Source of the DNA: a virus
Taxonomy: Duplodnaviria; Heunggongvirae; Uroviricota; Caudoviricetes
IMG/VR virus record: IMGVR_UViG_2936390555_000003
Span: 1 to 64,000 of that record
Strand: one strand, 5' to 3'
DNA length: 64,000 nt
Shown here: piece by piece, positions 2,271 through 55,193 of the stretch
Layout of the letters: every line of letters begins with the position of its first letter
Numbering within the stretch: position 1 is the first letter of the stretch
Made by a program: the position numbers and the translations under genes
The notes under the pieces: model-generated
Databases searched by the model: none
Told to the model about the DNA's origin: nothing
Seen by the model: the letters and a program-made list of their open reading frames with translations, nothing else

Positions 2271-2563
2271 TGAAAAGCTGGGATGACTGCAATAAGCCTC
2301 ACAGGCTGGCAAAGAAGTTCCTTGGAATAACAGGTGACTTCTCCAAGAAGAACTTCTTTGCTGTCTACAGCTTCTTTAAGAAGCAACAGGAGACCACTCT
2401 GAATCTGCTATATGAGTACCTTTGCTCCCTTGACGGGAAGCGAAAGATTACTATGGCAGACCTGTTTAAACAGGCGGATGAGTGGAACACGAGAAGCAAA
2501 GTAAAACACATAACTCATAGTAATGTTACTGATTATCTTGAGTTATTAGGAGGTACACGATGA
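2270..2563 (+). CDS. hypothetical protein (97 aa)
   Basis: ATG overlaps the upstream stop (TGATG). Same-strand operon context. Confidence 0.55.
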   Translation: MKSWDDCNKPHRLAKKFLGITGDFSKKNFFAVYSFFKKQQETTLNLLYEYLCSLDGKRKITMADLFKQADEWNTRSKVKHITHSNVTDYLELLGGTR

Positions 2564-2757
2564 AAGATTTCATAGGGGTTCCAAGGGTGAAGTTGAAAGA
2601 CTTCTATAAGATGGTGAAGGCTAAGGCACAGGCTGAGGCTGAGGAGCACAGGAAAGCGAGGAAGGCAAGGCATGAAGCTCAGAACGCTGATGATGACGAT
2701 GGTTCTGGTTCTGAGCCAAAGCGTGAACGCATCCGCACCAGGGCACGTTTACAGTGA
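2560..2757 (+). CDS. hypothetical small charged protein (65 aa)
   Basis: RBS GGAGGTACACG before ATG 2560. Its 3' third overlaps the start of the 3D-domain gene in another frame, so its true extent is uncertain. Confidence 0.4.
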   Translation: MKDFIGVPRVKLKDFYKMVKAKAQAEAEEHRKARKARHEAQNADDDDGSGSEPKRERIRTRARLQ

Positions 2758-3085
2758 CCTTTCTTTTTGTCGCCCCAAAGACATTATAGAAGATGTAAAA
2801 CCAACTGTAAGATACATAGCAAATGTATCATGGTATACAGCTTCTGACGATGAATGTGGAAAGTCAGATGGAATCACTGCGAGCGGTGAGCAAGCGGTTG
2901 CCGGAATTACGGTGGCCGCTGATGACCTTCCGCTGGGTACAAGAGTCCGCATTAACGGTCATGAATACATCGTTCATGACAGGTTTGGCGGTGGGTATAA
3001 AGGGCGCATAGATATTTATTGTGAAAGTAAAGAGGAGGCATTTGCTAACGGTAGGCAAATGCTAGAAGTGGAGGTACTGGAATAA
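2672..3085 (+). CDS. secreted 3D-domain (MltA/YocH-like) protein
   Basis: N-terminal signal-peptide-like MKLRTLMMTMVLVLSQSVNASA. 3D-domain motifs WYTASDDECGKSDGITASG...GITVAADDLPLGTRVRINGHEYIVHDRFGGGYKGRIDIY. RBS GAGGAAGG upstream. Confidence 0.6.
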   Translation: MKLRTLMMTMVLVLSQSVNASAPGHVYSDLSFCRPKDIIEDVKPTVRYIANVSWYTASDDECGKSDGITASGEQAVAGITVAADDLPLGTRVRINGHEYIVHDRFGGGYKGRIDIYCESKEEAFANGRQMLEVEVLE

Positions 3086-3279
3086 TGGACAATATAAGAG
3101 CAAAGATATTTATTGAAGCAGATGAAGCAGGTACAAAGGTTGAAGTTAATGGTGCCCCATCTATTATCATGTTCTTCCTTGGTCAGGTCATAGTTGACAT
3201 ATCGAAAACATCTGATGTACCACTGGAGGACATACGTGAGATGCTTGCAAAGTCTATTCAAGTATGGTCTGAGGATTAA
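3085..3279 (+). CDS. hypothetical protein (64 aa)
   Basis: ATG overlaps the upstream stop (TAATG). Operon context. Confidence 0.5.
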   Translation: MDNIRAKIFIEADEAGTKVEVNGAPSIIMFFLGQVIVDISKTSDVPLEDIREMLAKSIQVWSED

Positions 3280-3298: not shown

Positions 3299-5284
3299 AT
3301 GAATGTTAATAGCTTACTAAGGAAAAGCCTGGTGGAATATATTCCGGAGGCGCAATTGCATAGCGATGGGACATATCGGTGCGCATGTCCTATTCATAAC
3401 GGTGATAACCCAACGTCATTCACTATCTTTCCACAGGAGAATACATTCCATTGCTTCTCCTGTGGAGCCCATGGCAACATCATTAACTTTGTCATGGAGC
3501 GTGACAGCGTATGCTTCGACACCGCAGTCAAAACCCTCTGTGATGATTTCGGTGTTGAGATTGATGATCCGAAGTACAAGGAGCAGCTTGATATTACCCA
3601 GCGTAATGCAAGGTGGGCAGTGGGTATGCAGAGACAGCTCCCACGCATCATTGATTACCTGCACAAGCGCGGGCTGACCGATGAATCCATCAAGACATTT
3701 GGTCTTGGGTACAGCGAAAAGCTACAGGCTCTTTCGATTCCCATGTACGACACCTGGGGCCGGTGTGTGGCATTTCTCTATAGATACTTTGACCAGATGC
3801 CTAAGTACAAGAACAGCAAGAATATAGATGGACTCTTTGTTAAGGGTAAGTTCTTGTATGGCCTTCCACAGGCACAGCGGTTCCTGCGCAAGACGAAGAC
3901 TCTCATGCTTTGCGAGGGAGCCATGGATGCCATCAGTGCAATCCAGCAGGAGAACTGCTGTGTAGCCTACTGTGGTATCAGTGTTGGCAAGGCTCACATC
4001 GAGCAGATAAAGGAAGTCATTAAGCCAATTGGTGCCAAGGTTGTCCTGTGTCCTGACAATGATGGCAAGGCTGGCAAGTTTGTTCTGAGAGCCCGTGACT
4101 TATTCATGAAGCAAGCACCGGACACGGTTGTCAAAGTAGCCGTGATACCTGATGGGGCAAAGGACTTCAACGACATGCTTGTCCAGGGCATGGATATAGC
4201 CAACGATTGCAAGTATGAATCCGTGGACTTGTACTGTGTAAAGCAGATTGTAGCCAATGAGCCCGACAGGGATATGCAGGAAAAGCAAGTGGTCGCTTTC
4301 ATGTGTACCGTGAGGAACCCTTTGACTCGTGCTGATATAGCTGAATATCTTGCTGACGTATGGGAGCGCGATGTAGCTCTGGTTCGTGAGTTATTCAATA
4401 TCAAGCAGGATACAGCCGAGGAACAAATCAAGGACATCATGACAGTGGACGTTGGGTATCAGAGGCTGGAACATAAGAAGGTCGAGGAAACCTTCGGAGT
4501 TGGCTTTGATAACATCGACAATACCATTCAGTTCACAAGGAAGAATGTGGTTATCCTTGGAGCGTACAGTGGTTCTGGCAAGACTACCATGTTAGCCGAG
4601 TGGATATTGCACTGGTGCATCAAGTGCCACAAGAAAGTCCTGTTCTTCTCACTGGAGATGCCAGTGGAAGACATAATGAAAATCCTCATATCCAAGATTG
4701 TGCAGATACAGCAGTTCAAGGTATACGAGTATATCAAGGAGCGTCCTGATACCTATGAGCTAATCATGGATGCCCTGAAGAAATACCTGTTCATCGTGGA
4801 CAAGAACTACTTATCCTTTGATGATATGGGAAACTACATCAAGCTCCTGGCCTCACGCGATATTATGGTTGACATAGTAGCCGTGGATTACTTCCAGTAC
4901 ATGCAGGGCACTGACACGCTGGAAGGGCAGGAGAATACAGCGAAGAACATGAAAGCCTTCGCAAAAGAGAATAACGTGACATTGTTCATGCTTTCACAGC
5001 TCAATAAGGGAAGTCAAAAGGATGGCAGCGGAAAATTCAGAGAGCCGGTGCAGACTGACCTCATGGGCTCAGGTGCTATAGGCAATTCAGGTGATTACGT
5101 GGTTGCTATATGGAGACCAGCGCAGGTTCCTGGCTTATCACCGATTGACCGTGAGCATGTGAAGTACGACACGATGTTCAAGATAATCAAGGCTCGCGAG
5201 GTAAGAAGTGGTGACATCATATTTAATCTGGTGTACAACCCTGATACCTCACGATTAATGGAAAAGATTGGAGAGACAGTATAA
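3299..5284 (+). CDS. bifunctional DNA primase / DnaB-family replicative helicase
   Basis: N-terminal zinc-binding CHC2 motif (CACPIHNGDNPTSFTIF...FHCFSCGAHGN). TOPRIM motifs (LMLCEGAMDAISA...VLCPDNDGKAGK). C-terminal Walker A GAYSGSGKTT and DnaB-like VDYFQYM. Confidence 0.9.
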   Translation: MNVNSLLRKSLVEYIPEAQLHSDGTYRCACPIHNGDNPTSFTIFPQENTFHCFSCGAHGNIINFVMERDSVCFDTAVKTLCDDFGVEIDDPKYKEQLDITQRNARWAVGMQRQLPRIIDYLHKRGLTDESIKTFGLGYSEKLQALSIPMYDTWGRCVAFLYRYFDQMPKYKNSKNIDGLFVKGKFLYGLPQAQRFLRKTKTLMLCEGAMDAISAIQQENCCVAYCGISVGKAHIEQIKEVIKPIGAKVVLCPDNDGKAGKFVLRARDLFMKQAPDTVVKVAVIPDGAKDFNDMLVQGMDIANDCKYESVDLYCVKQIVANEPDRDMQEKQVVAFMCTVRNPLTRADIAEYLADVWERDVALVRELFNIKQDTAEEQIKDIMTVDVGYQRLEHKKVEETFGVGFDNIDNTIQFTRKNVVILGAYSGSGKTTMLAEWILHWCIKCHKKVLFFSLEMPVEDIMKILISKIVQIQQFKVYEYIKERPDTYELIMDALKKYLFIVDKNYLSFDDMGNYIKLLASRDIMVDIVAVDYFQYMQGTDTLEGQENTAKNMKAFAKENNVTLFMLSQLNKGSQKDGSGKFREPVQTDLMGSGAIGNSGDYVVAIWRPAQVPGLSPIDREHVKYDTMFKIIKAREVRSGDIIFNLVYNPDTSRLMEKIGETV

Positions 5285-8617: not shown

Positions 8618-9020
8618 CAGGCTTCATCTTGTCTTACCGCTGGTTCCAAGTGTGAACAGTATGTACATGACCACCAAGTACGGTGGTCGTGTGCGTACTA
8701 AGAAGGCAAGGGACTGGTTCGATGAGGCAGAGAGGATTACCAAGCTGGCAATAGTTGAGCAGGGATGGCAGCCTACTATTGGTGAAAAGGTTGTTCTTGA
8801 AATCATGACATACTTTCCTGACCGCAGGAAGCGTGATGTGAACAATAGCTCCAAGGCCCTCTGTGATATGCTTGAGCACGCGAGGGTGTATGACAATGAT
8901 AGGTATGCGCTCCCACGGTATATTGATTATGCAATTGACCGCGAGCATCCGAGGACAGAAGTGGTTGTGCGTAGGTTCGGGGAGGGAGACGAATGGAAGA
9001 CGATGATTCCCCATGCGTGA
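8595..9020 (+). CDS. rusA: RusA-family Holliday-junction resolvase
   Basis: PLVPSVNSMY (RusA PPSVN motif). Acidic catalytic residues DMLEHARVYDNDRY. 141 aa. Confidence 0.8.
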   Translation: MQRKSLADRLHLVLPLVPSVNSMYMTTKYGGRVRTKKARDWFDEAERITKLAIVEQGWQPTIGEKVVLEIMTYFPDRRKRDVNNSSKALCDMLEHARVYDNDRYALPRYIDYAIDREHPRTEVVVRRFGEGDEWKTMIPHA

Positions 9021-9124
9021 ACTGTATCAATAAGTGTGATGCGTGGGAGGCAGAGTATTGTTGCTTGTTATGTGAGTATCTTGGTGGTGGCAATTGTGAT
9101 GATTGTGACCCGATGGAAATCTGA
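8993..9124 (+). CDS. 43-aa Cys-rich mini-protein (10 Cys; zinc-ribbon-like), tentative
   Basis: Strong RBS GGGGAGGGAGACGA before ATG 8993. Translates to MEDDDSPCVNCINKCDAWEAEYCCLLCEYLGGGNCDDCDPMEI. Overlaps the rusA 3' end by 28 nt. Followed directly by the RBS of the next gene. Confidence 0.35.
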   Translation: MEDDDSPCVNCINKCDAWEAEYCCLLCEYLGGGNCDDCDPMEI

Positions 9125-9135
9125 GGAGGAATTGT

Positions 9136-9333
9136 ATGTTCTATGAAAGCATGATAAAACTGAAAAAGAAGAACATCGAGGCCGTAATTAAAATCCCGTT
9201 TGATACCAGGGATGAAGCGTTGGTTGGGTTCAATAGGTTACTTGATATGCTTGATGAAAGCCACGATGATACCTTGAAGGTATTGAATAGCTTTGCTGGC
9301 AATGGTGTTAAGGAGGAGTCGCATGTTTTATGA
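9136..9333 (+). CDS. hypothetical protein (65 aa)
   Basis: RBS CTGAGGAGGAATTG before ATG 9136. Confidence 0.5.
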   Translation: MFYESMIKLKKKNIEAVIKIPFDTRDEALVGFNRLLDMLDESHDDTLKVLNSFAGNGVKEESHVL

Positions 9334-10100
9334 CAATGAAATCTCCATGGGTATAATGGAGAAGAAGTATTTACAGCCAGGGGAAACCCCAGAGCAGTGG
9401 CTGGACAGGGTGGTGTCCATATTCTCCCCTGATTTGCAGGATGATATAAGGTATGCCATTAGTCAGGCTGACTTCTTGCCAGCAGGGAGAACCTTGGCTG
9501 GCGCAGGACTCAAGGGAAAGCGTAAGATGAGTACGTCTAACTGCTATATTTGTCCTTCACCAAAGGATAACATCGAATCCATATTTGATACAGCGAAAAT
9601 GGTTGCTCGCATCAGTAGCTATGGTGGTGGCTGTGGGATAGCATTGGATAACTTGAGACCGAAGGATGCACTGGTAAACAATAGTGCAAGAACATCAACG
9701 GGTGCCGTGAGCTTCCTGAATCTCTTTGATACGACAGGCTCAATTATTGGCCAGGCTGGAAGACGTGCAGCTTTGATGGTTGGTTTACGCTGTGACCATC
9801 CTGACATTTATGAGTTCCTTCGTGTCAAGGAGAATAACGAAAAACTTGCTTCCATGAACATCAGTATTAAATTCACTAATGAATTTATGGAGGCGGTGCG
9901 TGACCATAAGAAATTCCATCTTCACTTTGAATCCGTGCATGAAAACATTGAGCGTGACATTGATGCCGCTGAATTTTTTGAGGAATTCTGCAAGGTCAAT
10001 GCTGACTGGGGAGACCCAGGGTGCATCTTCATCGACAGGGTAAGGAGCTACCACTTGCTCAGTGGTTATCCTGAGTATCAGATTGATATATCCAATCCGT
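9323..10100 (+). CDS. nrdJ: class II (adenosylcobalamin-type) ribonucleotide reductase NrdJ, exon 1
   Basis: RBS AAGGAGGAG before ATG 9323. RNR motifs SYGGGCGIALDNLRP and GQAGRRAALMVGL. Exon ends ...ISNP + T at 10100, where the listed ORF hits the first intron codon TAA. Confidence 0.8.
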
Positions 10101-10309
10101 AAAGTGTATGCGGCGTTGCATGGTAACATGCAAATGAAAATCCCCTCTGAATAACTTGGAAGCCCTAACGTAAAGCCGAGGGTGACAGGGAGCAAGGGTA
10201 ATGCCAGCTTGAGAGAAGTAAGCGAGGGGACATCCCATGTGGATGGTGCGGTACTCCAGACGACAAACACTGTTATACCAGGTGTGCTATGGAAACATAG
10301 TGTCGTAGG
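10101..10309 (+). ncRNA. ORF-less group I self-splicing intron interrupting nrdJ at the NPC(thiyl-Cys) codon
   Basis: Exon 1 ends ...AAUCCGU with U before the splice site. The internal guide GCGG (10110-10113) pairs with CCGU (G·U at the splice site). P2 hairpin TTGCATG-GTAA-CATGCAA. P3-like pairing CCCCTC(10143-48)/GAGGGG(10225-30). Terminal G at 10309. Splicing T|GT restores the Cys codon and the frame (NPCAEYYGIGGNSCNLGSINL). Confidence 0.6.
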
Positions 10310-11724
10310 GTGCAGAATATTATGGTATAGGTGGTAACAGCTGCAACCTTGGTTCCATCAATCTTTATAACATGATTGATGACAAGTTCACTCGCGAAGC
10401 GCATGTGAACTATGAACGCTTGGGAACTGTCGTAAACATTGCTGTTCAGGCACTCGATGAAATCCTTACTTATGGCTATGGTATGCAGCCATTAGATCTG
10501 AATCGCAAGGTCATTGATGACTGGCGCAGCATAGGACTTGGTATCTTCGGTCTTGCGGATGCACTGGTTGCTATGGGTATACGTTATGGCAGCAAGGAGT
10601 CAATTGAATTTGTCTCTGATGTCATGGAACACATCATGCTCTATGCCTTGGAAACATCATCAGACCTGGCTCATCACTATGGCTCATTCAGAAAGTATGA
10701 TTTCGAGAAGATTTGCGAGTCTCAGATAATCAAAGCTTTCCCTTACATGAGGGATAAAATAGAAATGGATGGGCTCCGTAATGGCTCACTGATTTCCATC
10801 GCTCCAACAGGCACTATTTCCCTGTTTGCCGGGCGGTTCACTGGTGGTGTGGAGCCTATGTATCAGGTGGCATACGAGAGAACCTCCCATTCCACTGAGG
10901 ACGAAGGAAAGACCTTCTTTGTCTATGCTCGTGGCGTGGAAGACCTCCTGAAATTCCATGGGATTGACCCTCAGAAAATCACGGTGGACGAGATTAAGGC
11001 ACGGTTCCCATTTGTTATTGAGTCTCATGAGGTGCCATGGAAAGAGCGTGTGGCTCTCCAGGGTGTAATGCAGGATTACGTTGACAACTCCATCAGCTCC
11101 ACGGTAAACCTGCCTAACAGTGCAACATGGGAAGATATTCGTGACATCTACATGTTTGCATGGGAGCAGGGGCTCAAGGGAATAACCGTGTTCCGTGATG
11201 GGTGCAAGCGTGGCAATATCCTTGGCGTATCTAAGGATGAGCCAGTTGAGTCAATGTATAACATGGTTGAACCGCTGAAGCGTGGCAGTACCTATCGCGT
11301 TGATGGCTCCACATTCAAACAGCGGACAGCCTGTGTTCCTTCCATGTATGTCACGGTGAACAAGTCAGACACAGGCGACCTCATGGAGGTATTCACTAAT
11401 GCCAGCGGTGGTTGTCAGGCCAACATTAATACCATTACTCGCCTGGTTTCCCTTTTACTACGCGCTGGTGTCAAGCGTGACATTGTAATCGAGGAGCTTC
11501 GTGAGAATCAGTGTCCTGCATGTCAGGCTCTTAGAAGGCAGGGAAAATCCCTTTCCCTGAGCTGCGGTAATGCCATTGCAGATGCCATGACAGCCATGCT
11601 GGACGATGAATCTACCGTGGAGCATGATGGCTACCTGGTATGCCCTGAGTGTGGCAAGCATACCCTTAGACCAGAGGGTAAATGCTTTACATGCAGTAAC
11701 TGTGGCTACAGCAAATGTGATTGA
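10310..11724 (+). CDS. nrdJ: NrdJ exon 2
   Basis: In-frame continuation CAEYYGIGGNSCNLGSINLYNM..., with the same C-x10-CNLGSINL spacing as NrdJ active-site loops. C-terminal zinc ribbon CPECGK...CFTCSNCGYSKC. Confidence 0.8.
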
Positions 11725-11734
11725 GGTGATTTGA

Positions 11735-11905
11735 TGGGACATGTTTATAACCTAGGATTAAATGTAGCATGTGACGTTTCCGTGTATGCGGAGAACGCCA
11801 GTGAAGCCAAGGAGCAGGCAGTGAGCCAGGTTGAAAGTGGCTTGGTAGACCTTGGGTTCGATAATCCCGATGCTGATGTGGTGAGCATTGAAGCAGACGA
11901 TTGAA
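11735..11905 (+). CDS. hypothetical small protein (56 aa), tentative
   Basis: ATG 11735 lies 8 nt after the nrdJ stop. Weak RBS (GAGGTGATTTG). Confidence 0.3.
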
Positions 11906-12178
11906 GAACGCATCAAAGCACTGCGACTACAAATCATGATTCATAGCATTATCTATTATGAAATGGATAACAATATAATCAGTGATGCTGAGTGGTCAAA
12001 GCGTGCTATGGAACTCGTGGAATTGCAGAGGAAATACCCCTCTGTATCCACGGTGTTCGATGAAGCGTTCAAAGATTTTGATGGTAGCACTGGTTTCCAT
12101 TTGCTGCGCTATGCAGACGATAGAGCCAGGGGCAAAGCGAAATATTTGTTAAGAATAGAAGGGAAGTTAAGAGAATGA
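11888..12178 (+). CDS. hypothetical protein; N-terminal helical pattern faintly resembles NAD-ligase domain Ia (tentative)
   Basis: Alternative (TTG) start in the ORF track. Pattern I..L...I..H...YY..D...ISDAEW..L..EL..L. Translationally coupled (ATGA overlap) to the ThyX-like gene. Confidence 0.4.
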   Translation: MKQTIEERIKALRLQIMIHSIIYYEMDNNIISDAEWSKRAMELVELQRKYPSVSTVFDEAFKDFDGSTGFHLLRYADDRARGKAKYLLRIEGKLRE

Positions 12179-12729
12179 TTAAGACATTAGGCGTATATAA
12201 TCTTGAGGAAGCACTCGCATCCGCTGGACTTCCGATGTGCTTGCATATTGATGCGTTAAAAGCATCGGAGGGCAGGGGAAAGAAGCTTGGTCATGCCCCT
12301 GTCGGCAGTGGTCACGATAAGTTCCTTCGCGGTATCATGGTGAGCTTCAGGATACAGGCTCCACGGTATTTCTACCAGCAGCTTGATACCTACCATTTTG
12401 TTGAGAGCGTAAGCAGTCAGTCCACCATGCATTGCGTTGATGAGTTCAATCTGAATACAATGCTTGCCCCGGCTACTGACCAGATAATTGCAACGAGATT
12501 CAAGCAGCTGGTTCAGATGTACAAGGATGGCAGGATTCCATTGTCCGTGGTAAAGGCATCGCTTCCGGAGGGGCTCATGCTTTACCGTGACTGCGTGACC
12601 AATTATCAGCAGTTGAAAACCATTTACAAGCAGCGCAGGAATCACAGGCTCACTGAGTGGCAGGAGTTCTGTGATTGGATTGAGACTTTACCTATGTTTA
12701 AGGAGTTGGTATTAGATGAAATTGGGTGA
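12175..12729 (+). CDS. divergent ThyX-like (flavin-dependent thymidylate synthase fold) protein lacking the canonical RHR / S-x-R-Y residues
   Basis: Aligns by eye to the ThyX core: VSFRIQAPRYFYQQLDTYHFVESVSSQSTMH versus [31 protein letters not shown]. The C-terminal block also aligns (GRIPLSVVKASLPEGLMLYRDCVTNYQQLKTIYKQRRNHRLTEWQ versus ThyX [43 protein letters not shown]). Nucleotide-metabolism context between nrdJ and dut. Confidence 0.5.
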   Translation: MIKTLGVYNLEEALASAGLPMCLHIDALKASEGRGKKLGHAPVGSGHDKFLRGIMVSFRIQAPRYFYQQLDTYHFVESVSSQSTMHCVDEFNLNTMLAPATDQIIATRFKQLVQMYKDGRIPLSVVKASLPEGLMLYRDCVTNYQQLKTIYKQRRNHRLTEWQEFCDWIETLPMFKELVLDEIG

Positions 12730-13273
12730 TTATGTAGAGGTTACTAATGGAGATTTCGCAGGGAAGCAGGGGTGTGTTACTGCTATCGAAAGCAATAACA
12801 TGGTCCGCATTGATGACAAGTATTGGTTCGTTGCTGAAGATGTGAAGCCAATTGCTCCCATTGTTGAAGTGAAATACTTCGATAAGCGTTGCAAGCTTGA
12901 GCAAAATGGTGATTGGATTGACCTCAAGGCAGCAAAGGATTTCCATTATCATGCAGGGGATGCCCTCATGATACCGCTGGGAGTGGCAATGAAACTTCCA
13001 AAGGGGTACGAAGCTCACATGCTTCCGCGTTCCAGCACATTCAAGAGATATGGTATTATCATGACCAACTCCATGGGTATTATTGATGAAGCATACTGTG
13101 GCGATGATGACCAGTGGCATTTCCCTGCGTGGGCATTGCGTGAAGGTCGCATCAAAGCCGGTTCCAGGATTGCACAGTTCCGCGTGGTAAAGCACCAGCC
13201 AGCATTGCATTTTGCTGAGACTTCAAGGCTTGGGTATAAGAACCGCGGTGGCTTTGGGAGCACTGGCAAATGA
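12716..13273 (+). CDS. dut: dUTP diphosphatase with ~55-aa N-terminal SH3/KOW-like extension
   Basis: Trimeric dUTPase motifs AGDAL (I), PRSSTFKRYG (II), GIIDEAYCGD (III), GSRIAQF (IV), NRGGFGSTGK (V). The N-terminal KLGDYVEVTNGDFAGKQGCVTAIE resembles the GD-V-L repeat of the minus-strand paralog family. RBS AAGGAG upstream. Confidence 0.85.
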   Translation: MKLGDYVEVTNGDFAGKQGCVTAIESNNMVRIDDKYWFVAEDVKPIAPIVEVKYFDKRCKLEQNGDWIDLKAAKDFHYHAGDALMIPLGVAMKLPKGYEAHMLPRSSTFKRYGIIMTNSMGIIDEAYCGDDDQWHFPAWALREGRIKAGSRIAQFRVVKHQPALHFAETSRLGYKNRGGFGSTGK

Positions 13274-30783: not shown

Positions 30784-30871
30784 GGAGCCATGGCAGAGTG
30801 GTTTATTGCAGCGGTCTCTAAAACCGATGATGTTCACGCATCCGTAGGTTCAAATCCTACTGGCTCCGCCA
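30784..30871 (+). tRNA. amber-suppressor tRNA, serine type: tRNA-Ser(CUA), class II with 16-nt variable arm
   Basis: Cloverleaf: acceptor GGAGCCA/UGGCUCC; U8; D-stem GCAG/UUGC with G18G19; anticodon stem CGGU/ACCG; loop CUCUAAA (anticodon CUA at 30818-30820); variable arm UGAUGUUCACGCAUCC (GAUG/CAUC stem); T-arm GUAGG-UUCAAAU-CCUAC; discriminator G73; CCA encoded. SerRS identity elements present (G1-C72, G2-C71, A3-U70, C11-G24, long arm, G73). Anticodon loop equals bacterial tRNA-Ser(CGA) with G35 changed to U. Confidence 0.8.
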
Positions 30872-31430: not shown

Positions 31431-31553
31431 ATGGAAGAAAAGAATCGCAGACCTCGCCATGTGAAAAAGGGCAAGGATCTGCGCAGACATGTGAAGGACA
31501 GGGATGACTACAGGGCAGCCAAGAAAGAAATATTTGAGCATAGAGCACGATGA
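31431..31553 (+). CDS. small basic protein (40 aa; MEEKNRRPRHVKKGKDLRRHVKDRDDYRAAKKEIFEHRAR), tentative
   Basis: ATG 3 nt after the upstream stop. Overlaps the next start (ATGAATG). Coordinates hand-derived. Confidence 0.3.
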   Translation: MEEKNRRPRHVKKGKDLRRHVKDRDDYRAAKKEIFEHRAR

Positions 31554-32506
31554 ATGACTTGGTTACAACGATAGACGATAGAGAAGCCGTGACATCCAGC
31601 CGTGTCGTGGCAACAGCCTTTGAAAAAAGGCATGACAATGTTTTGCGAGACATAAGGGGTCTCCTCAAAATTGAGGATACCCAAGGAATGTTCTACAAGA
31701 CTACATATATCAATAAGCAGAATGGACAGAAGTACACGGAGTACCTCATGAACCGCGATGGGTTTGCCATACTGGTCATGGGGTTCACGGGAGCTAAAGC
31801 CCTTGAGTGGAAAATGAAATTCCTGAATCAGTTCAACGCCATGGAATCCGTCATCAGACAGCACGGTCTCGAAGGGAAGGTGCAGAAGTCTCTTGATGCC
31901 ATATCTGACCTGCGAAAGCAATTGAAGGACTCAGGCATACTGAGGGAGTACATAGCTCCCCATCATTTCTTTGACCACCTGGCAGCTCGATGGAAGGAAG
32001 CAACGCACCGTGAGCGCATAAGGGACTTCTATGATGATATTGGTTCTTACGCTGGCGTGAATGTTCCTTATAGCAACATGATAAACATTACAGTCAAGGA
32101 TTGGCTGTTGAATCATGTTGGACTCAGTACCATTGAGGAGCTTGTGATTGGGCTGGAAACACATACGATTACATATTCTAACCGAGGCAAGCCAGTGTCA
32201 AAGCATGGTGTCTTCGGGAACAAAACTGAATGGACAAAGATTGTTAATGAGTTCGGCGGTCGATGTGCTTATTGCGGAGCTGAGGGAACGCCATTGATTG
32301 CCGAACATATCATTTCACAATCCGCGCTGTCCAAAGACCACCCTGAGAAAGTTGACTTGATAGGAAACATTATTCCTGCCTGTCAGCAATGCAACCGATA
32401 GAAATACACGACCGACTTTGAGAAATGGTTCCCAAAGCAGCCATTCTACTCAAAGGCACGGCACAAGAAGATAATAGAACACATGGAGAAGTATGAGGTG
32501 AAGTGA
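31550..32506 (+). CDS. Rha-family regulatory domain fused to HNH endonuclease; contains 1 in-frame TAG (32399-32401)
   Basis: N-terminal Rha motif TSSRVVATAFEKRHDNVLRDIRGLL. C-terminal HNH motif CAYCGAEGTPLIAEHIISQ...NIIPACQQCNR. The frame continues through TAG for 34 more codons to TGA 32504-32506. HNH next to terL is typical. Confidence 0.6.
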
Positions 32507-32507
32507 A

Positions 32508-34130
32508 TTGGCAGAGAACATCATGAGAGAAATCTTTGGCAACAAGCTTCGCAGGGATGCAGAAGTCGGCTCCATGAAAGACAAGTGCGCCCATGACTTC
32601 AAGCTGTTCTGCGAGTATTATCTGGCGGATAGCTTTGGATAGCCCTGGAGCCACAAGTTCCATGACTGGCTGATTGACAAGCTGGTGAGCATAACCTTTG
32701 ACCATAGGGATGATGAAACGAGAACAGTGGTAGCATCGCCTCGTGGTCATGCAAAGTCAACACTCATATCCTTTGGGTATGTACTTTGGCTGATAGTGTA
32801 TAACTACAAGAAGTTCATCGTTATTGTCTCGGCTACTGGCACGGTATCAAAGCAGTTCCTACTGAATATCAGGACAGCCCTTGAGACAAACCAGCGATTG
32901 CGACAGGATTTCGGTGACCTAACCAGCGATGACCTATGGAATAACACGGAGCTTCTTACGCAGAACAAAGTGTTTGTCACTGGTCGTTCGGCAGGACAGC
33001 AGATGCGAGGACTGAACTTTAATGGAACACGACCGGACATCGTTATCCTTGATGACTTGGAAACTCCTGAGCAGGTGGCAAGTCCTGCGCAAACACGTGA
33101 CCTTGAGAAATGGTTTAACTCAGATGTTCTTCCTATGGGCAGCATCAGTGCTGACTTCATTTACATTGGCACAGTGCTTTCATATGAAAGCCTTTTGTAC
33201 CACATGCTGACCAATGCTGGCTACAGCTCATGGACACGCAAGAGGTTTCAGGCGGTAATTGAATTTTCCAGGAGCCCATTGTGGGACGAATGGGAAACCA
33301 TCATTACAGACCTGGAGCGTGGCGACCATGCGTATGACGATGCGGTGGCATTTTACAATGAGCACAAGGAAGAAATGCTTGAGGGCACGGAAGTCCTCTG
33401 GCCAGACCAGCGACCTGATATGTACAGGTATCTCATGGAACGCAGGATAGCCGATGAGGAAAGCTTTGCCAGCGAGTACATGAATGACCCACAGACCGAG
33501 AACACAAGAGTCTTTAAGACCAAGTGGCTTGAGGATAACTATTATGTCGATGCGCCTGACATTCGGGAGATGTGCATTGCCATTGACCCGGCGGTATCAG
33601 CGAAGCGCAAGAATGACTATAGTGCCATTGTTGCTGTGGGGCGTGGCATGGATAACTACTTCTATGTACTGGAAGCCGATGTACAGAAGCGCACCCCTGA
33701 TAAGATTATTGAAGATGCCAAGGAGATAATCGCTAGGTACTACAAGTACAAGCCTAGCATTGTCGTGGAGACCAATCAGATGCAAGCATTCTTTAGCAGT
33801 ACCTTGAAGCGAGATATGGTTAATGCTGGAATATACCTTGACTGGATAGAAGTCTATCGTAAGTCAGGGGACAGCAAGAGCAGTCGTATAGAGAGTCTGG
33901 TACCGCACATAAAGAATGGTTACATAAAATTCAAGGCAAGTCAGAAGATATTGCTTTCACAGCTAAGGAATTATCCAAAGGGACATGATGATGCTCCCGA
34001 CTGCTTGGAGTCAGCGTTGGCTCCGATGCTGAGTACAAACAAAACATCGTTTGGCTTCAGTAGTGCAGGGGCATCTCCGAAGCACGGTGGAACTTTTGAC
34101 TTCCTCAAGAAAGCGATAGGAATGAGGTGA
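32508..34130 (+). CDS. terL: terminase large subunit; 1 in-frame TAG (32640-32642)
   Basis: RBS GAGGTGA before TTG 32508 (alternative ATG 32523). N-terminal segment MREIFGNKLRRDAEV...YYLADSFG-TAG-PWSHKFHDWLIDKL is continuous with ORF 32685..34130. Walker A ASPRGHAKST, Walker B DIVILDDLE. Nuclease domain in the C-terminus. Confidence 0.85.
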
Positions 34131-41848: not shown

Positions 41849-42060
41849 AGGAAAAGACTGAATGGAGAAACCTATTTGCCTCCATTGTCCAGAACACTAG
41901 CATGACAATGGAGGATATAGGCAATCTCCGAATCAATCAGATGGAAGATTTATTGGAAGGTATGAATGAGAATGCGGAAGCATTGGAACGCGAGATGAAG
42001 GGCGAGGTAAAGCCACTGGAAGGCGATGCTGCCATTAGAAAACTTATGGGAGGGATGTAA
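41483..42060 (+). CDS. tail assembly chaperone G-T frameshift fusion product (-1 frameshift at 41831-41840)
   Basis: -1 frame reads ...KSDVKEKTEWRNLFASIVQNTSMTMEDIGNLRINQMEDLLEGMNENAEALEREMKGEVKPLEGDAAIRKLMGGM, ending just before the tape-measure ATG. Confidence 0.45.
41831..41840 (+). promoter_or_regulatory. programmed -1 ribosomal frameshift slippery site (A AAA AAA AAG)
   Basis: A9G run at the 3' end of the chaperone gene. The -1 frame is open for ~73 further codons (to TAA 42058-42060), encoding a plausible gpT-like extension. Confidence 0.5.
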
Positions 42061-42061
42061 T

Positions 42062-45000
42062 ATGGCCACAGAAAACGATAAGCCAAAACTTGGATTGGAT
42101 ATATCCATAAGCACAACGAGCGCATTTAACTAGGTTAGGCATCTGAAAGAAGAAATCCAGAAGCTCAAGAATTTAGCCGATAAAGGAATTGACTTCTCCG
42201 TAAACATTGGCAGTGTTATTAAGCAGGCGAACAGCGCACTCAAAGAGGCACGTAAATCTATTGATGACATCAAGAAGTCAGCAATGGAGGGTGGCAAACT
42301 CAAGCTTGAACTTTCAGAGACTGATATAGCAAAGATTAACCAGGGCATGACTGAGTTGCAGACTGCCATGACCAAGGCATCTACGCTGGGTATGGAGGCG
42401 TGGGCTAGAGTTGACCGCGGTATAACTAGGGCTCGCAAGAACCAGAGTGAATTTATGAGGGAAAGCTATCACACGAATTTCCAGAATTTCGCCGGTCAAT
42501 CTGAAGATCTCGTTCTGAAGACATAGAACGAAAATGTGAAGAATGCAATTGCCCATCAGATGAATAAGAAGTATTCTGAGTATGACTGGTCTGACCCGGC
42601 CAAGCTGGAAGAGGTGAGAAAAAAATTCTTTTAGCTTGTAGATTCATACAAAGATACTGCCGACCTCATGAATCCAGAGAGATTTGCAAGGTTTATTTCT
42701 GAGTATAGAGCTATAGTAGACCACGCACCTGCATCCGCGGATATAGGAGACTCCCTTAGAATATTAAAGGAGCGCAACATGGATAAAGTGTTCCAAAAGT
42801 ATTTCAAAGATACTCATATTGCAGGGATGGAAAACATTTTCAAACAGGTTGCTACGCTTGACGATAAGAACTTTGAGTCTATTAAACCGACAATAAAAGA
42901 GGCAATAGGTAATATACGTGAAGCAGGGGGTAACAGCTCTTTGTTCGCTCCACTGGCAAAGCAATACAAGGATAATCCTAGAATGCTTGATCTTTTACCA
43001 ATCTATCCTAATAAAATTATTGACTGGGACAAGATGTTATATGGCGAGGGCGCAACTAAGACCTCAGTAAATCTCGATGCACTGCATAAGGTAAGCGAGG
43101 CTTTGCGCCAGGCTATTATGGAAGTCGTTAAAAGCGTAGAGCAGATAAAGAACGCTGCTGCTACGACTGCTGTTTCAATGAATACGATAGCACCTTCATC
43201 GGCTTCTCCTGTACCGCCTGAGAAGAGCAATCTTGTAGTGCAGGTGAAGCAGGAGAACGATGAAATCCAGAAAGCCCTGAAGCAGCGTGAAGCTCTCTTG
43301 AAGCAGCTTAACGATATGAATAACCTTGTAGCTAAAAGGCCATACGAGCATCGCCTGGAAAAATTGGATAAACTGAATGCAACCCTGTCAACTAATGGCT
43401 ATGGCATACAGCTTCCAAGGTTCTATGCAAAAAGCGGTGACAAGGAAGCTACAAATGCAGCTTATGACAATTATCTCCGCGAGGCATCCGGTTACAATTC
43501 CATGCGCAAAGAGCTTACTTCCATGATGGAACGTGGTATCACGCCTACCAAGGAGCATTGGAATGAAATCAGGAATAACTATTTGTCCATGCTTGACTCC
43601 CTGAGGGAAAAGCGTTACAAGATTTCTCCGGTATCAGATGATTTTACTGGCGGAACCTATGAAAAGTTCCTTGCAAAAATGAGGGAGTTCCAGCAGACCG
43701 CAAAAGCAAATGGTATCGTACCTGTTACCGCTGATGCCCGTCAGGTCAACGAGAAAATTGCTGAGTTACGTAAAGCCTTGGCATCCCTGGAAGCATTTAG
43801 CATTAGGATTACAGCGAACACTGAGCCTATCATTAAGGCAGTTGACTCCGTGATTGCCAGATTGCAGTCTATGAAGGACGTGGCTATCACCGTAAATGCG
43901 AACACAAAGCCGTTCATAGAGGCGATAGATGCTTGCATGGCAAAGTGCAAAGAGCTCAAGCCAAATATAGAGTTCGATGCAGCAAAACTTAACACAGAGC
44001 TTGCAAAGATAAAAACTGTTCTCCCTATTGCTATTGACTTTGAGAAATATCGTGAGGAGCTTCAGAAAATCCAGAAGTACACCAATAGCTTACCACATAT
44101 GATACTCAAGGCTGGACTTGACACAAGCGAGTTCATTAAATCCGTTGAGGCTGCTAAAATTAAAGCCAAAGAAATAAAGGATATTCGTTTGAATATTGAT
44201 GCGAGCGGTGTTGAACCTGGCTATAACAAGTTCAAGGATTTCGTTGATTATGCATACAGGCACAATCCTATTGCAATTGGTGTTACAGTGAATGAAACTA
44301 GTCTCAGTGTTATTGACTTGTTGCTCAATAGGGTCCAGGCATTACAGTAGGCATCTAGGTTGCAGATTGATTTTAAGAAACTCTATGATGATATAAAGGT
44401 TCTTGAGCAGAACTGTCCTACCATTAAATTGCCTATCTCAATTGATAAAAATATGTTCAAGGAGCAGGTGGGTAAAATCGCTTCTCCAAAGATTTCCACT
44501 CAGCTCAAGATTGAACGACAGAAATTCCGTGATGAAATCAAAGATGTTGGCGAGAAACTTCCTAAGATAAAGGTGGGTATCGGAGTTGATGCAAAGGGGT
44601 TCCATGACGAAGTTAAGAACGTTGGCTCACAGCTTCCTACGGTAAAGGTTCCTGTTACAGTTGACTCGAAGTTCTTTAAGGACGAAACCGCACGCATACA
44701 GGAAATACTTGATACCATAAAACCCGTATCCATAAAGGTCAATGCTGACACACAGCAGTTCATTTCTACTATAAAGGAGTGCGTTGATGAGCTCCACAAG
44801 CTCAAGGACATAACCGTTACAGTAAAAGGTAAGAAGCCTAAAGAAAAAACAGCTGCTGTTACAGAGGATACTCCAAAGAAGGCTAAGGGGAAAGCCAAGA
44901 AGGAGATGGACTACGATGAGCTCCTTACTATGCTCAAGATAAATCAGTTTTCTGATGGTATATCGCAGAGTAAATCCACTGTAGGCGCAAGGCTCAAGAG

Positions 45001-48000
45001 CGTAAGGAACCTCCAGAGTGCAGCGATGCAAGGCGGATGGCAACCGAGCGCCGAGGATTTGGCATGGCTGGCAAATGAGCGCAATGCACTTGAACGGAAA
45101 AACGAAGCGGTCAAGCTGAACAGTACCAGACCTGGGACAAACCTTATTGACGAGTATATTCGCTTGAGAGAACAGGAGTCTAAAAGATTCTCTGAATAGC
45201 TCCGCAATCAGATGAACGAGCGTGTTAAGCAGGAAAACAAGATTACTGATGAGGAACTTGCTGCAACCAAAAGACAGCTTCGTAGAAATCTCAAGGAATG
45301 GCAAAAGAATAATACTGCAATTGCGAAGGCAAAAGAAGAAGCTCGTAAGAGAGAGTTAGCCAAGGAAGCTCAGGCTGCCAAAGAGCAGAAGGAATACAGC
45401 GACCGCACGGCAAAACTTCTTGTTCAGGAAAGATTCGCTCAAACAAAGGAACAGGAAAAGGCAGAGGAAAAAGCTCGCAAGCGTAGATTAGCTCAGGAAG
45501 CTCAGGCTACCAAAGAGCAGAAGGAGTACAGTGACCGCACGGCAAAGCTTATGACCCAGGAAACCAATAGGCTCCAGGCATTGAAGGATAAACTTGCAAA
45601 GCTTCAGAATGACATTACCATCTCCCAGCTTTCCGGCAAGAAGATTGCCATGGATTCCTGGCTGAGGAAGAGTGACAGGGAGGCCGAGCTTATCAATAGC
45701 ATCATGTCCATGGGTGGCACGGCAAGCGCGAAGTACAATGGCATCGCAGGATTCAAGGAATACGTTAAGCCTTGGAACCAGCAGGATAAACTCAAGACTG
45801 ACAATAAGGAATTGAAGGAAGCCCTTAAAACATACGAGCGTATCGAAGCCATCCTTGTACGCATCAGGAAAACAGGAATTATCCCTGATAATATCGACAA
45901 GTTGAAGCAGAAAGAATTGGAAGCAAGGTCAATCATTCAGAAGAGCTTTGGCGGAGCACTTGGTTCTCCTGCACAGCAAGCTGCCTTCAATGCAAATTAT
46001 CCGCAGGTATTGACACAGCAGAATATCGATGCTGCAAAGTCCGGCGCTGAGATAAGCAAGAGGCTCAAGGGTGAAATGCGGAGTGCCATGAGCGAGTTCA
46101 AGAGCCTCATAAAAGAGGTAAGGCGCGATGCGATAAATGGCACTGGTCGCTCTGAATACTACTTGGCAAACCGCAGTAGCAGGATTGCTGAGATACTCCA
46201 GGGAGTTGATAAGAATACCAGGAACGCTCTTTTGATGAGGTATGAGAATGATATTCATAGGGCATACGCAAACCCTGCTGACATTAACGCCAAGGCAATA
46301 GCCGAGGTAGAAAAGAGACTTGCAGAGCGTTGGCAGAAGTTTGATATGCTTGACAACGTCACTCCAAAGGCATATACAAATATGTATCAGTATCTCGTGA
46401 GAGCCGTAGAAAAAATTGGCTCCATGGGCGGCATGTACGATGGTCGCGTGCTGACCAAGACTCCGGAGGAGTACAAGGCAAGCTATGTGAGACCTTCGAC
46501 TGGTATAGATGAAGCTGCACGGAAGCAGCAGAATTTAAATGCTATTCAGGAAAGATACAACGCTGAACTTGAGAAGCAGAATGCCCTGATGACCTACGGC
46601 ACACTTCTTTCCCAGAAGCAGATTGATACTGCAATCAGGAAACTCGAAGCATTGCGCAAGAAATACGAGGAACTGGGCGGTGAGCGTAGCAAGCTTCAGC
46701 TGTCTGACATTGAAGCTGCTGGAACTACTGCTCGCGATGTGAACTCTGCAATCGTTGACCGCAATGTGAAAGCATGGAGCACGGATAATGTGGCAACCGT
46801 GTCCCAGGGCTTATCGCATCTCAGCGGAATGCAACAGGCCCAGTACAATGCATGGCTCCAGGACCCAAGCAAGAATAACCTGAAGAACCTTACGCTTACC
46901 ACAGCAGAGATGAGGAAGCTTAACAGGGAGGCCCAGCGTTATCAGCGTGTTGTCAACGACACCAATAAGACGATGGAAAGCCTTAATAATAAGATTCACA
47001 ATCATCTTTCCTGGATGACAAGCGGACTGTTCATTGGAACTATCTTTGCTATTCCTGCTGAGGTAATGAATCAGTGGAAAGAACTGGAGTATAGCCTCGC
47101 TGGTATCAGGCAGGTTATCACGGAAATCGAAAAGAACGAGGGAGGCAATGCGTTTAAAGAAGCATTTGATCTTATGGAGATTGCCAAAAAGAACGGCGTT
47201 GGCGTTGAGGAGACCATGGATGCAGCCAAGTCTATCGGTCGTATGTATGGCAAGAACCCTATCGACTCAAACGGTGTCGAAGAAAAGGGCGTTGGTATTC
47301 GCAATACAAACCTGATTACTTCACAGGCAGCGAAGATGGCAGTAGCCGATGCCTTCGATATGGAGAATGCATTCAAGGGATTGGAGGCAGCATTATCCCA
47401 GTGGAACTTGCAGACAGAGGACACAAACCAGCTTCTCATCAATACCAATCGTATACTGGAAGCATGGACTATCACAGCTCATGCCGGTGCTGCATCGGCT
47501 CAGGACATTGGGCAGGCAATTGAAATTGCTGGTACTGCCGCTGCAAATGCAGGCGTGTCATTCGAGTTCTTCAATGCCCTTGTTGCTACAGGTGTACGGC
47601 AGACTGCACGAAGCGGTAATGAAATCGGTCAGGCAATCAAGTCCATGATGGTTTCCATGCAGTCAAATAAATCCCTGAAAGCCTTGAAGGAATGGGGAAT
47701 AGAGTTGTATAATGTAAGCGAGGATGGCACGAAATCCATGCGCTCCATGGAGGACATTATTCTCGATGTATCCCTGCTCATGAACAATACGGCAAAAGAT
47801 ACCAGAGGACTGCTGACTACGCTGTCTGGTGGTAAATACCAGTATTCAAAAGTATCAGCAATGCTGGGCAATTATAAAGAATTGCTCCGCATGATGAAAC
47901 TCATTAACAACCCTAATGATAATCTCATGGAAGGCAAGCCTGGCTTATTCATCGACCAGCAGGTTGAAGTGCAGATGGACACCTTACAGAGAAAAATCAA

Positions 48001-51000: not shown

Positions 51001-52204
51001 GCTCGATGGATTCGAGCAGATAGCCGAGGACTTCATGTTCAACGGCAAGTCCTTCAGGGATATTATTGATAATCTCTGGCAGGACCTGGGCAAGGATGCA
51101 TTGAGGGCATTGTTCGGGCAGGATATTAGCGGTAATCATTCCTTCCTTGCAACCCTGCTTGGTATTGGAAAGCCTGATGAGGAAATGGCGAAGGCACAGG
51201 CACAGGAGGAGCTCAAGAATGTTCCGCTTATCAATAACACCAGTGCTACTGACAGGAACACCTTGGCAGTAAACCAGCTTACTCAGGCTATGCTTGGTCA
51301 GGCACTTACCCCGTTGGCTACTTCCAAGTATACGTTTGATGCTACACGAAATGCGTATGAATCCGCGAGACCATTCAGCTTGCAGGAGAACGCATGGAAC
51401 AATGCGGTAGCAACGACAGGCTTTGGCTCACAGCCTACCTACGATTTCGAGGCTGACATGAAGCAGTGGAAGCAGAGCAACGATTACCTGAACCGCACGA
51501 TGGCACAGTCGAATCGCTTGAACGCCACCGGGAACACCGAACAGAAGAAGAGCAATGATGCTCTTGGCAAGAACACCAATGCTAATCTTCAGGTGGCAAC
51601 CGGGCTCATGGGCATCGGCAATGCCTTTGCAAACGGTGACTGGCTGGGCGGTCTCCTTGGCATAGCTCAGGTGGGCATGGGCTTCGGTTGGTTCAAGGCT
51701 GACGGTGGCAAGTTTGCTGACGGTGGTGCACCAGCTGGCAAGGTCACCGGTGCTGGCACTGGTCGCAGTGATAGCATCCTTGCTTATCTTGCCAACAAGA
51801 ACAAGTTCGTATGGCTGTCCAATGGCGAATATGTCATCAACGAGAAATCAGCGAAGGCACTTGGATACGATACTCTCGATGCCCTCAATGGATATGCCAC
51901 TGGAGGCAGTCTGGATTCATCGCCTGTCAATCCAACACCGTACATTCCTACGATTAATCCGCAGGTAGCCAAGAAGGCTACAAGGATTTCCGGGAACAGT
52001 GCCACGGAAGCCCTGCTGAGAAAGCAGAATAAATACATGGCCGAGCAGAACTCCATGCTCAGGAACATGGGCGAGTCCGGGAACGGTCAGGTGGTTGTAC
52101 TGAATACCCAGGCATCCAGTGCAGATGTTATGAAAGCACTTCAGGAAAATCCTAGAGCTGTTCAGGCTATCCTTGGTCGACAGCAGAGAATGGGCTTTAG
52201 ATAA
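42062..52204 (+). CDS. tail tape measure protein, single ~3,380-codon reading frame with 7 in-frame TAG (42131, 42524, 42632, 44348, 45197, 48206, 48266)
   Basis: RBS GGAGGGATGTAAT before ATG 42062. ORF-track pieces 42284.., 42668.., 44360.., 45212.., 48329.. are all in one frame, separated only by TAG, with no RBS or credible starts. TMP features: coiled-coil repeats, ...LSWMTSGLFIGTIFAIPAEVMNQW...AGIRQV, hydrophobic GGPLGVAITALTILIPLGI, low-complexity ANTA repeats. Ends TAA 52202-52204. Confidence 0.7.
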
Positions 52205-55189: not shown

Positions 55190-55193
55190 TTGG

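Follow-up and report, generated by a model that had tools for sequence, protein, structure and literature searches.

Structure of the interrupted nrdJ locus

The stretch of DNA examined here, called the window below, comprises 64,000 nucleotides (positions 1 to 64,000) of the IMG/VR record IMGVR_UViG_2936390555_000003, a tailed phage of the Caudoviricetes, and carries on its plus strand, on which all features described below are given, a ribonucleotide reductase (RNR) gene, nrdJ, whose codon for the thiyl-radical cysteine is split by 209 nt (10101-10309) that are very probably a group I intron. Exon 1 (9323-10100, 778 nt) opens with the ATG at 9323 and supplies 259 codons plus a T, the first base of the Cys260 codon, its end reading ...ATC TCC AAT CCG T; continued in the DNA, this frame meets a TAA at 10100-10102, in which the T is the final base of the exon and the AA opens the intron. 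Exon 2 (10310-11724) starts with the GT that finishes the Cys codon, runs on as GCA GAA TAT TAT GGT in the frame of the long open reading frame (ORF) ending at 11724, and encodes AEYYGIGGNSCNLGS, the remainder of the barrel, a TSCPD domain and a Cys-rich C-terminal tail before a TGA stop; under the standard code its first in-frame start is the ATG at 10372. The preliminary description of this locus had placed the exons and the intron at these coordinates, with the RNR frame resuming at 10310, and all of these are confirmed in the sequence.

Joined, 9323-10100 and 10310-11724 give 2193 nt and a predicted protein of 730 amino acids (about 82 kDa) that reads ...IDISNP-C-AEYYGIGGNS-CNLGSINL... and contains the junction peptide ISNPCAEYYGIGGNSCNLGSINLYNMIDDK, the predicted ligated junction being 5'-GATATATCCAATCCGT|GTGCAGAATATTATGG-3'. 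The joined protein matches Pfam Ribonuc_red_lgC in one stretch (residues 72-553), carries a C-terminal TSCPD domain, and reaches 436.2 bits against NCBIfam TIGR02504 NrdJ_Z (cut-off 399.95), again in a single stretch (residues 40-562). Its best match in the PDB is the T. maritima B12-dependent RNR 1xje (E 3e-63), class I enzymes following at about 1e-27, and the alignment to 1xje is gapless over the junction (isnpcaeyygiggnscnlgsinl in the query against stnpcgeiglsdyeacnlgsidv), with equal C-x10-C spacing, such that the thiyl-radical loop NPCAE...C(x10) of the joined product matches NPCGE...C of 1xje. To judge from these matches, the host gene is a class II RNR (NrdJ), adenosylcobalamin-dependent by family. 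Two intronless phage homologues, L123 and L124 (66-67% identical), carry VSNPCAEFFGNGGNSCNLGSIN uninterrupted at the junction, and a splice after G10309 is the only one that restores both TGT (Cys) and colinearity with such intronless genes. NPCAE had been regarded as a minor deviation, and it does differ from the NPCGE of 1xje; however, it is not a defect but a trait of the clade, because the intronless L123 and L124 carry NPCAE too.

The in-frame UAA at the splice site has counterparts among relatives of the intron at the same site in other RNR genes, where a stop lies at the junction or at most three codons beyond. By analogy with the T4 introns, such a codon would halt ribosomes at the splice site on unspliced RNA and may thus have a protective role for intron folding. 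In practical terms, gene callers split nrdJ into fragments of 259 and 450 amino acids, neither of which contains the catalytic Cys.

Anatomy of the intervening sequence

The order of helices within 10101-10309 is P3-P4-P5-P5'-P4'-P6-P6'-P7-P3'-P8-P8'-P7', which is that of the canonical group I core, and the minimum free energy and centroid folds of the intron alone yield P2, P3, P4, P5, P8 and P9. The 5' strand of P1 is the exon sequence CCGU (10097-10100), which pairs with GCGG at 10110-10113 with a U10100·G10110 wobble, the 5' splice site lying after U10100. CCGU/GCGG is present in all relatives at the RNR site, and the extended P1 covaries among them (AAUCCGU/GCGGAUU versus CAUCCGU/GCGGAUG). 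The GCGG strand belongs to an internal guide sequence (10104-10113) of which the remaining segment, UGUAU at 10105-10109, may form a P10 with GUGCA at the start of exon 2 (10310-10314) through three Watson-Crick and two G·U pairs. P2 (10116-10133) is a hairpin of 7 bp, UUGCAUG/CAUGCAA, closed by a GUAA loop of the GNRA type; a P2 of different sequence occupies the equivalent place in the relatives L130 and L141, whereas introns of the type found in Roseobacter phage CRP-118 are devoid of it. The 5' strand of P3, UCCCCUC (10141-10147), pairs with GAGGGGA at 10224-10230, which lies between the two strands of P7 and thereby creates the P3/P7 pseudoknot. In the P4-P5 domain (10155-10189), P4 pairs CUUG (10155-10158) with CAGG (10186-10189) and P5 pairs GCCCU (10162-10166) with AGGGU (10179-10183), the joining segments being GAA (J4/5) and GA (J5/4) and the 12-nt loop L5 reading AACGUAAAGCCG. 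The P6/P6a hairpin (10191-10209) consists of AGC/GCU, an internal loop AA/A, GG/CC and the loop GUAAUG.

P7, the expected guanosine-binding helix, is formed by G-(A)-GA-(A)-GUA (10213-10220), in which the A residues in brackets are bulged, and UACUCC (10252-10257). Its third pair is G-C in the phage intron versus C-G in the consensus of its relatives, a compensatory swap that is shared by two of them (L115 and L090). P8 (10231-10245) is a hairpin of CAUCC and GGAUG around CAUGU, and J8/7 (GUGCGG) together with the 3' strand of P7 fills 10246-10257. The P9 domain (10260-10306) comprises P9 proper, ACGACA (10260-10265) paired with UGUCGU (10301-10306), and two hairpins, P9a (10267-10285) and P9b (10287-10300), the latter with a GAAA loop; the tetraloops may engage in tertiary contacts. 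The intron ends with a terminal guanosine (omega G) at 10309, the 3' splice site following directly. The P1 with its U·G pair, the GUAA hairpin of P2, the CCCCTC/GAGGGG pairing of P3 and the terminal G, all of which the preliminary description had pointed out, are each present. No ORF lies inside the 209 nt, and hence the homing endonuclease expected of a mobile intron is lacking; an ORF reading through the TAG at 10306 into exon 2 was considered and rejected.

Probable group I identity and the intron family

The curated Rfam model of group I introns, Intron_gpI (RF00028), had been proposed as a check, and it does not match: neither the scan of the 64-kb window at the gathering threshold nor that of a 421-nt slice (10000-10420) at E <= 10 returned Intron_gpI, the scans of the window and slice yielding just two tRNAs and one chance snoRNA match. 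Other lines of evidence tie the element to group I introns. In a sensitive blastn search of the 209-nt intron against 50,697 GenBank phage records, intron nt 47-124 resembled an unannotated gap between two 'ribonucleotide reductase' coding sequences of Roseobacter phage CRP-118, and nt 48-82 resembled the gaps by which genes of Staphylococcus and Bacillus phages are split, where the matched regions score 60.9 and 46.7 bits, respectively, as Rfam Intron_gpI. The segment common to the phage intron and these Rfam-positive introns is J3/4-P4-P5-L5. A megablast of 9000-12000 against the GenBank phages gave no match.

A search pattern taken from P4-P5-P4' (CTTGGAAGCCC N3-20 GGGYGACAGGG) recovered a family of related elements from at least 119 IMG/VR contigs and from 14 contigs of GTDB genomes, mostly metagenome-assembled genomes (MAGs). 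In an alignment of 52 non-redundant cores (A1), from which the nrdJ intron of the phage was excluded, 98.1% of the cells of P3, P4, P5, P6, P8 and the P7 pseudoknot are paired, and 16 of the 28 pairs show double changes; changes on both sides occur in all pairs of P3 (7/7), P6 (4/4) and P8 (4/4), as modelled. When the partners were slid by one to three columns as a control, 40-52% of the cells were paired (38-52% over both alignments). A covariance model built from A1 (R1) and run over 62 sources gave 71 members, some of them without the search motif; in the resulting alignment (A2) 98% of the cells remain paired and double changes extend to 23 of 28 pairs, including two of four in P4, three of four in P5 and three of five in P7. 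Run on the 64-kb window, R1 has a sole match, at 10141-10257 (66.1 bits, E 1.2e-13), which is full length and holds no non-canonical pair. Covariance-model support for the locus is therefore available from a model built without the phage intron, and neither R1 nor Rfam indicates a further intron in the window. Compared by eye as consensus strings, without a score, the P7 of the family (GACUA...UAGUC) and its J8/7 (GAUGCGA; with the P7 3' strand, GAUGCGAUAGUC) agree with the Rfam consensus AGACUA...GAAGAUAUAGUC. Features of the known subgroups are mixed: P4-P5 is IA-like, but there is no extra hairpin of the P7.1/P7.2 kind, and the family is as compact as IC3 introns.

That Rfam fails to detect the intron reflects a lack of sensitivity in RF00028 and does not speak against the intron, because RF00028 missed every relative on which it was tried, with no match among 13 loci of the family at the gathering threshold or among eight at E <= 1, and because its coverage of phage and divergent introns is known to be incomplete (PMC11878797, PMC13011429). 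An RF00028 score is a curated operational criterion and not a defining biological feature.

The absence of an Rfam match nevertheless belongs among several points that weigh against a group I intron at this locus. The z-score of the stand-alone fold is a modest -2.1, P1 has just 4 bp and P4 just four standard pairs, and P10 and the peripheral contacts are without support from covariation. In addition, the family was gathered with a 22-base fixed motif from the nrdJ intron itself, so that the R1 score is in part a product of construction; P3, P6, P7 and P8 fall outside that motif. R1 also found no meaningful match in the Rfam-positive introns of Lacachita and Nigalana, nor in the experimentally studied IA2 intron of Pf-WMP3. 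As R1 fails to reach Rfam-positive introns, the tie to validated group I introns consists of the blastn match of about 35 nt, the shared consensus strings and the topology.

Conservation of intron and exons

The same intron is shared by two further lineages of the phage group, L125 (the same as contig L086) and L139. Between the window and L125 the exons differ at 185 of 2193 positions, with a dS of 0.39 and a dN/dS of 0.076 in exon 1 and 0.057 in exon 2, whereas the intron differs at 3 of 209 (Fisher p = 6e-14 against third positions), and is thus some 27 times more conserved than synonymous sites. The three substitutions that distinguish the intron from that of L125/L139 (10270 C>U, 10271 U>C and 10280 A>G) all fall in P9a, which stays paired despite them (C-G to U·G, U-A to C-G). 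Compared with the other two lineages, L139 differs at 150-208 nt over the gene as a whole, against 0-3 nt within the intron. Both exons therefore encode protein under purifying selection (dN/dS 0.06-0.08 over three lineages), and the intron RNA itself is strongly constrained, which argues against both a pseudogene and a passive spacer. Neither an intronless allele of a close lineage nor further copies of the exact nrdJ intron were found in viral contigs or JGI metagenome contigs. The nrdJ of L139 (JBJDWY010000095.1, 746-3144), which has 93-97% amino acid identity and the same intron, lies on a 39-kb contig binned with an Anaerovibrio sp. MAG; this hints at gut or rumen Selenomonadaceae as host or habitat, co-binning being weak evidence.

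The NP|C site as a recurrent target

The position of the intron is not unique to this phage but, judging from the sequences recovered, a recurrent target of the family, members of which occur at AAYCCGT|GY, after the first base of the thiyl-Cys codon, in at least eight other RNR lineages. Carriers at this NP|C site are the CRP-118 group and the contigs L070, L071, L102, L130, L133, L141 and probably L082, and their RNRs are distantly related to the nrdJ of the window. In L070 the intron (368-1041) encloses an ORF (565-969) that is an HNH endonuclease by PHROGs (phrog_2255, E 2.6e-31), though Pfam gave no match to it, and the intron of L133 (about 2400-3090) likewise has an inserted ORF; both ORFs are placed downstream of P3'. 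The HNH protein of L070 would be the expected homing agent, and the intron of the window is, within that family, a member that has no ORF. L070 has another HNH gene, which is free-standing, at 1967-2437, just after the RNR. The point directly N-terminal of the thiyl Cys is also where inteins most often insert in class I and class II RNRs (Dassa et al., PMC2677866), and the nrdJ intron site is one nucleotide downstream of that hotspot. The favourite intein site is thus one that introns, too, have targeted again and again in many unrelated RNR lineages, a clear case in which mobile elements converge on the position of an essential enzyme that is least open to mutation.

The family is abundant in uncultivated phages, often with several copies on one contig, but nearly absent from isolates, with blastn finding it in 4 of 50,697 GenBank phage records, in none of which it is annotated as an intron; in one record, MW202674, a member lies under features labelled 'hypothetical protein' and 'P22 coat protein'. 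Eight IMG/VR contigs hold two or three members each, and their spacing of a few hundred bases suggests genes with several interruptions. As a tentative proposal, one that we consider doubtful rather than probable, the family may represent an undescribed subclass of miniature group I ribozymes, with a core of about 100 nt and ORF-less lengths of 172-210 nt, abundant in uncultivated phages, rare in isolates and invisible to RF00028, one branch of which would have specialised on the thiyl-Cys codon of monomeric and dimeric class II RNRs; in that case the CRP-118 type, at 172 nt, would rank as the smallest known natural group I intron. If so, the intron of this type would make a useful minimal ribozyme scaffold.

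A model of nrdJ splicing and its alternatives

Taken as a whole, the data are best accounted for if the nrdJ of this tailed phage is interrupted at 10101-10309 by a compact group I intron that lacks an ORF and is predicted to be self-splicing, a reading to which we assign a probability of roughly 0.9. The proposal from which the analysis set out, that an ORF-less group I intron interrupts a class II RNR gene at its thiyl-radical Cys codon, is accordingly supported from several sides, namely the colinear junction, the core, covariation, similarity and conservation. Under this model, nrdJ would be transcribed as a single pre-mRNA in which the intron folds to a group I core made of a P4-P6 domain and a P3-P7-P8-P9 domain joined through the P3/P7 pseudoknot. 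The guide GCGG would pair with the exon end CCGU and set U10100·G10110 at the active site, where a free guanosine bound in P7 may attack after U10100. G10309 would then occupy the guanosine site, P10 possibly aligning the 3' exon, and the 3'-OH of U10100 would attack after G10309, with the joining of the exons. Ligation would rebuild U|GU as Cys260, the thiyl-radical Cys of the NPC(A/G)E loop, and thus only spliced mRNA would give the active enzyme of 730 amino acids. The chemistry outlined here, and the ability to proceed without protein, are inferred.

A first alternative is that the element is a genuine group I intron but not an autonomous one, and that efficient splicing would call for the translating ribosome or for a protein (a chaperone or a maturase-like factor) of the phage or its host. 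The shortness of P1 and P4, the unextended P5 and a fold z-score of only -2.1 are all compatible with such dependence, as are precedents: for the T4 td intron to splice in vivo, the exon upstream of it must be translated, and proteins are required by many group I introns of organelles. However, GNRA loops are available for docking in L2 (GUAA) and L9b (GAAA), as in the Azoarcus intron, and no candidate cofactor gene adjoins nrdJ. We therefore consider dependence on a cofactor unlikely, though it is to be taken seriously. It is highly improbable, by comparison, that the insertion is dead, its splicing having been lost and nrdJ having become a pseudogene. The lack of an Rfam match, the short P1 and P4, the missing endonuclease gene and the failure to find an intronless close allele might be read in this way; but the strong purifying selection on both exons in three lineages, the conservation of the intron far above that of synonymous sites, substitutions that keep their helix paired and a core in which all pairs are canonical contradict it.

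Alternatively, the gene may be truly split, an NrdJ-a and an NrdJ-b being translated separately and assembling noncovalently, with the 209 nt as a spacer. Intronless split RNR genes do exist in phages, such as nrdJ of Thermus phage phiYS40 and nrdA of Aeromonas phage Aeh1 (PMC3653736), and, were TAG read as sense, as it appears to be in the late genes of this phage, the frame of exon 2 would be open back to 10222 and contain ATG codons at 10237 and 10243. This arrangement is barely credible, however, because the Cys codon is divided T|GT between the halves and neither therefore encodes the catalytic Cys. Even with TAG as sense, the hypothetical C-fragment would read ...NIVS-X-GAEYY, without N-P-C, and the first start of the standard code, ATG 10372, lies past the CNLGS motif. 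Moreover, read in that frame the L125 changes would alter amino acids (L>S, Q>R), whereas in the RNA helix they are compensatory, and the supposed spacer holds a conserved, covarying group I core. Finally, the chance that the 209 nt are bypassed by other means is negligible: an intein, for which the RNR hotspot directly N-terminal of the same Cys might speak (PMC2677866), would run into the in-frame TAA as soon as the intron begins and has no ORF and just 209 nt available, a group II intron could not be contained in 209 nt, which is far too small, and no Rfam family matches, and ribosomal hopping would lack matching take-off and landing codons and have to clear a gap four times that of T4 gene 60.

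Genomic context and significance

The window represents a tailed phage with a replication and nucleotide-metabolism module, consisting of a primase-helicase (3299-5284), an exonuclease, an SPFH protein, RusA, nrdJ, an Nlig-Ia protein and a dUTPase, and with a late module of terminase, portal, tape measure and tail fibre. Directly after nrdJ, a stand-alone protein of 96 amino acids (11888-12178) comprises nothing but the N-terminal, NAD+-binding domain Ia of DNA ligase (Pfam Nlig-Ia), and the dUTPase (12716-13273) has a KOW-like N-terminal extension. A tRNA at 30784-30871 has the anticodon CUA (amber suppressor), a long variable arm and G at position 73, and the late genes (27654-63738) show many in-frame TAG codons in frames otherwise without TAA or TGA: seven in a frame of 3398 codons in the tape-measure region (42011-52204), six in the tail fibre frame (55089-59006), and one in the frame of the large terminase (32640). 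This points to a reading of TAG as sense in the late genes, as far as can be told from their frames; the nrdJ exons are free of TAG codons. Directly upstream of the large terminase, an ORF at 31550-32506 joins an anti-repressor or Rha-like N-terminal part to an HNH C-terminal part and has an in-frame TAG, at 32399, in the region of the HNH motif. A second small intron in the gap of about 240 nt before the large terminase (32401-32643) was entertained as a candidate and rejected, both flanking ORFs continuing through in-frame TAG.

With respect to nrdJ itself, the present intron does not overturn current understanding; rather, class II nrdJ joins the RNR genes invaded by group I introns. Phage metabolic inventories and RNR marker phylogenies will be distorted wherever the intron family occurs, as genes are called in pieces and an Rfam scan gives no flag. 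RNA engineers would find in the family group I cores of 172-209 nt that nature has already minimised and that come with rich covariation data.

Comparison with known systems

The closest counterpart is the intron of phage CRP-118 (L002, OR420741, gp44/gp45; also L006, L017 and L020), which belongs to the same family (103 bits with R1) and shares the AAUCCGU|G site, the CCGU/GCGG core of P1 and the lack of an ORF. It differs in its length of 172 nt (L002 2471-2642; OR420741 35054-35225), in the lack of P2, in an 8-bp P1 and in a simpler P9. The gene that it interrupts encodes a class II RNR of the monomeric, RTPR-like type, and its exons are annotated in GenBank as two RNR genes; the spliced product aligns through NPC-SEIILRPYQFCNL to the monomeric class II enzyme of Lactobacillus leichmannii (1l1l) and has at least 80 intronless homologues, which confirms the junction. 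If self-splicing, the CRP-118 intron would be shorter than the smallest group I introns known to us (184-205 nt). More distant are the introns in the endolysin region of Staphylococcus phages (Lacachita) and in the DNA polymerase genes of the Bastillevirinae (Nigalana), which have a near-identical P5-L5 (CCCUAACGUAAAGNCGAGGG), a similar J3/4-P4, the GACUA...UAGUC P7 and AGC before P3', but differ in an extra hairpin between P7 and P3', endonuclease ORFs, other host genes and a positive RF00028 score.

Group I introns in phage and prophage RNR genes are textbook knowledge, examples being those of T4 nrdB and nrdD, Twort nrdE, bnrdE/bnrdF of SPbeta and nrdE/nrdF in the Bacillus cereus group. These lie in class I or class III genes, and many are larger (the two Twort nrdE introns have 429 and 1087 nt) and several carry HNH or GIY-YIG genes, whereas the intron of the window lies in a class II nrdJ, has 209 nt and is ORF-less. 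That such introns are well established, as had been stated at the outset, is borne out by the more than 100 RNR introns curated in RNRdb by 2009 (PMC2795772), and no other phage gene is interrupted as often as RNR (PMC3653736); among the 128 phage genomes of one survey there were just two split nrdJ genes, and neither was ascribed to an intron (PMC3653736). The searchable literature, itself incomplete, yielded no description of a group I intron in nrdJ or at the exact NP|C site, the curated intron list of RNRdb lying outside the search, so that prior knowledge of such introns is possible.

In build, the intron of the window is like the minimal bacterial introns of tRNA genes, among them that of Azoarcus tRNA-Ile, which has 205 nt, is self-sufficient and docks through GNRA loops: all are of about 200 nt, ORF-less, and composed of the core plus P2 and P9 with GNRA loops. 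Unlike it, these introns sit in tRNA anticodon loops, and no sequence similarity to them was detected. The bacterial tRNA introns range from 184 to 894 nt, and some of them, too, are invisible to RF00028 (PMC13011429). The earlier characterisation of the nrdJ intron as very small holds to the extent that 209 nt is small, but it loses force against tRNA introns of 184 nt and the 172-nt relative at the same site. The RIR1 inteins occupy the same RNR hotspot, but splice at the level of the protein and form in-frame ORFs, whereas the element in nrdJ is an RNA with a stop at its first codon. The nrdJ intron is thus a known kind of element, small at 209 nt though not exceptional.

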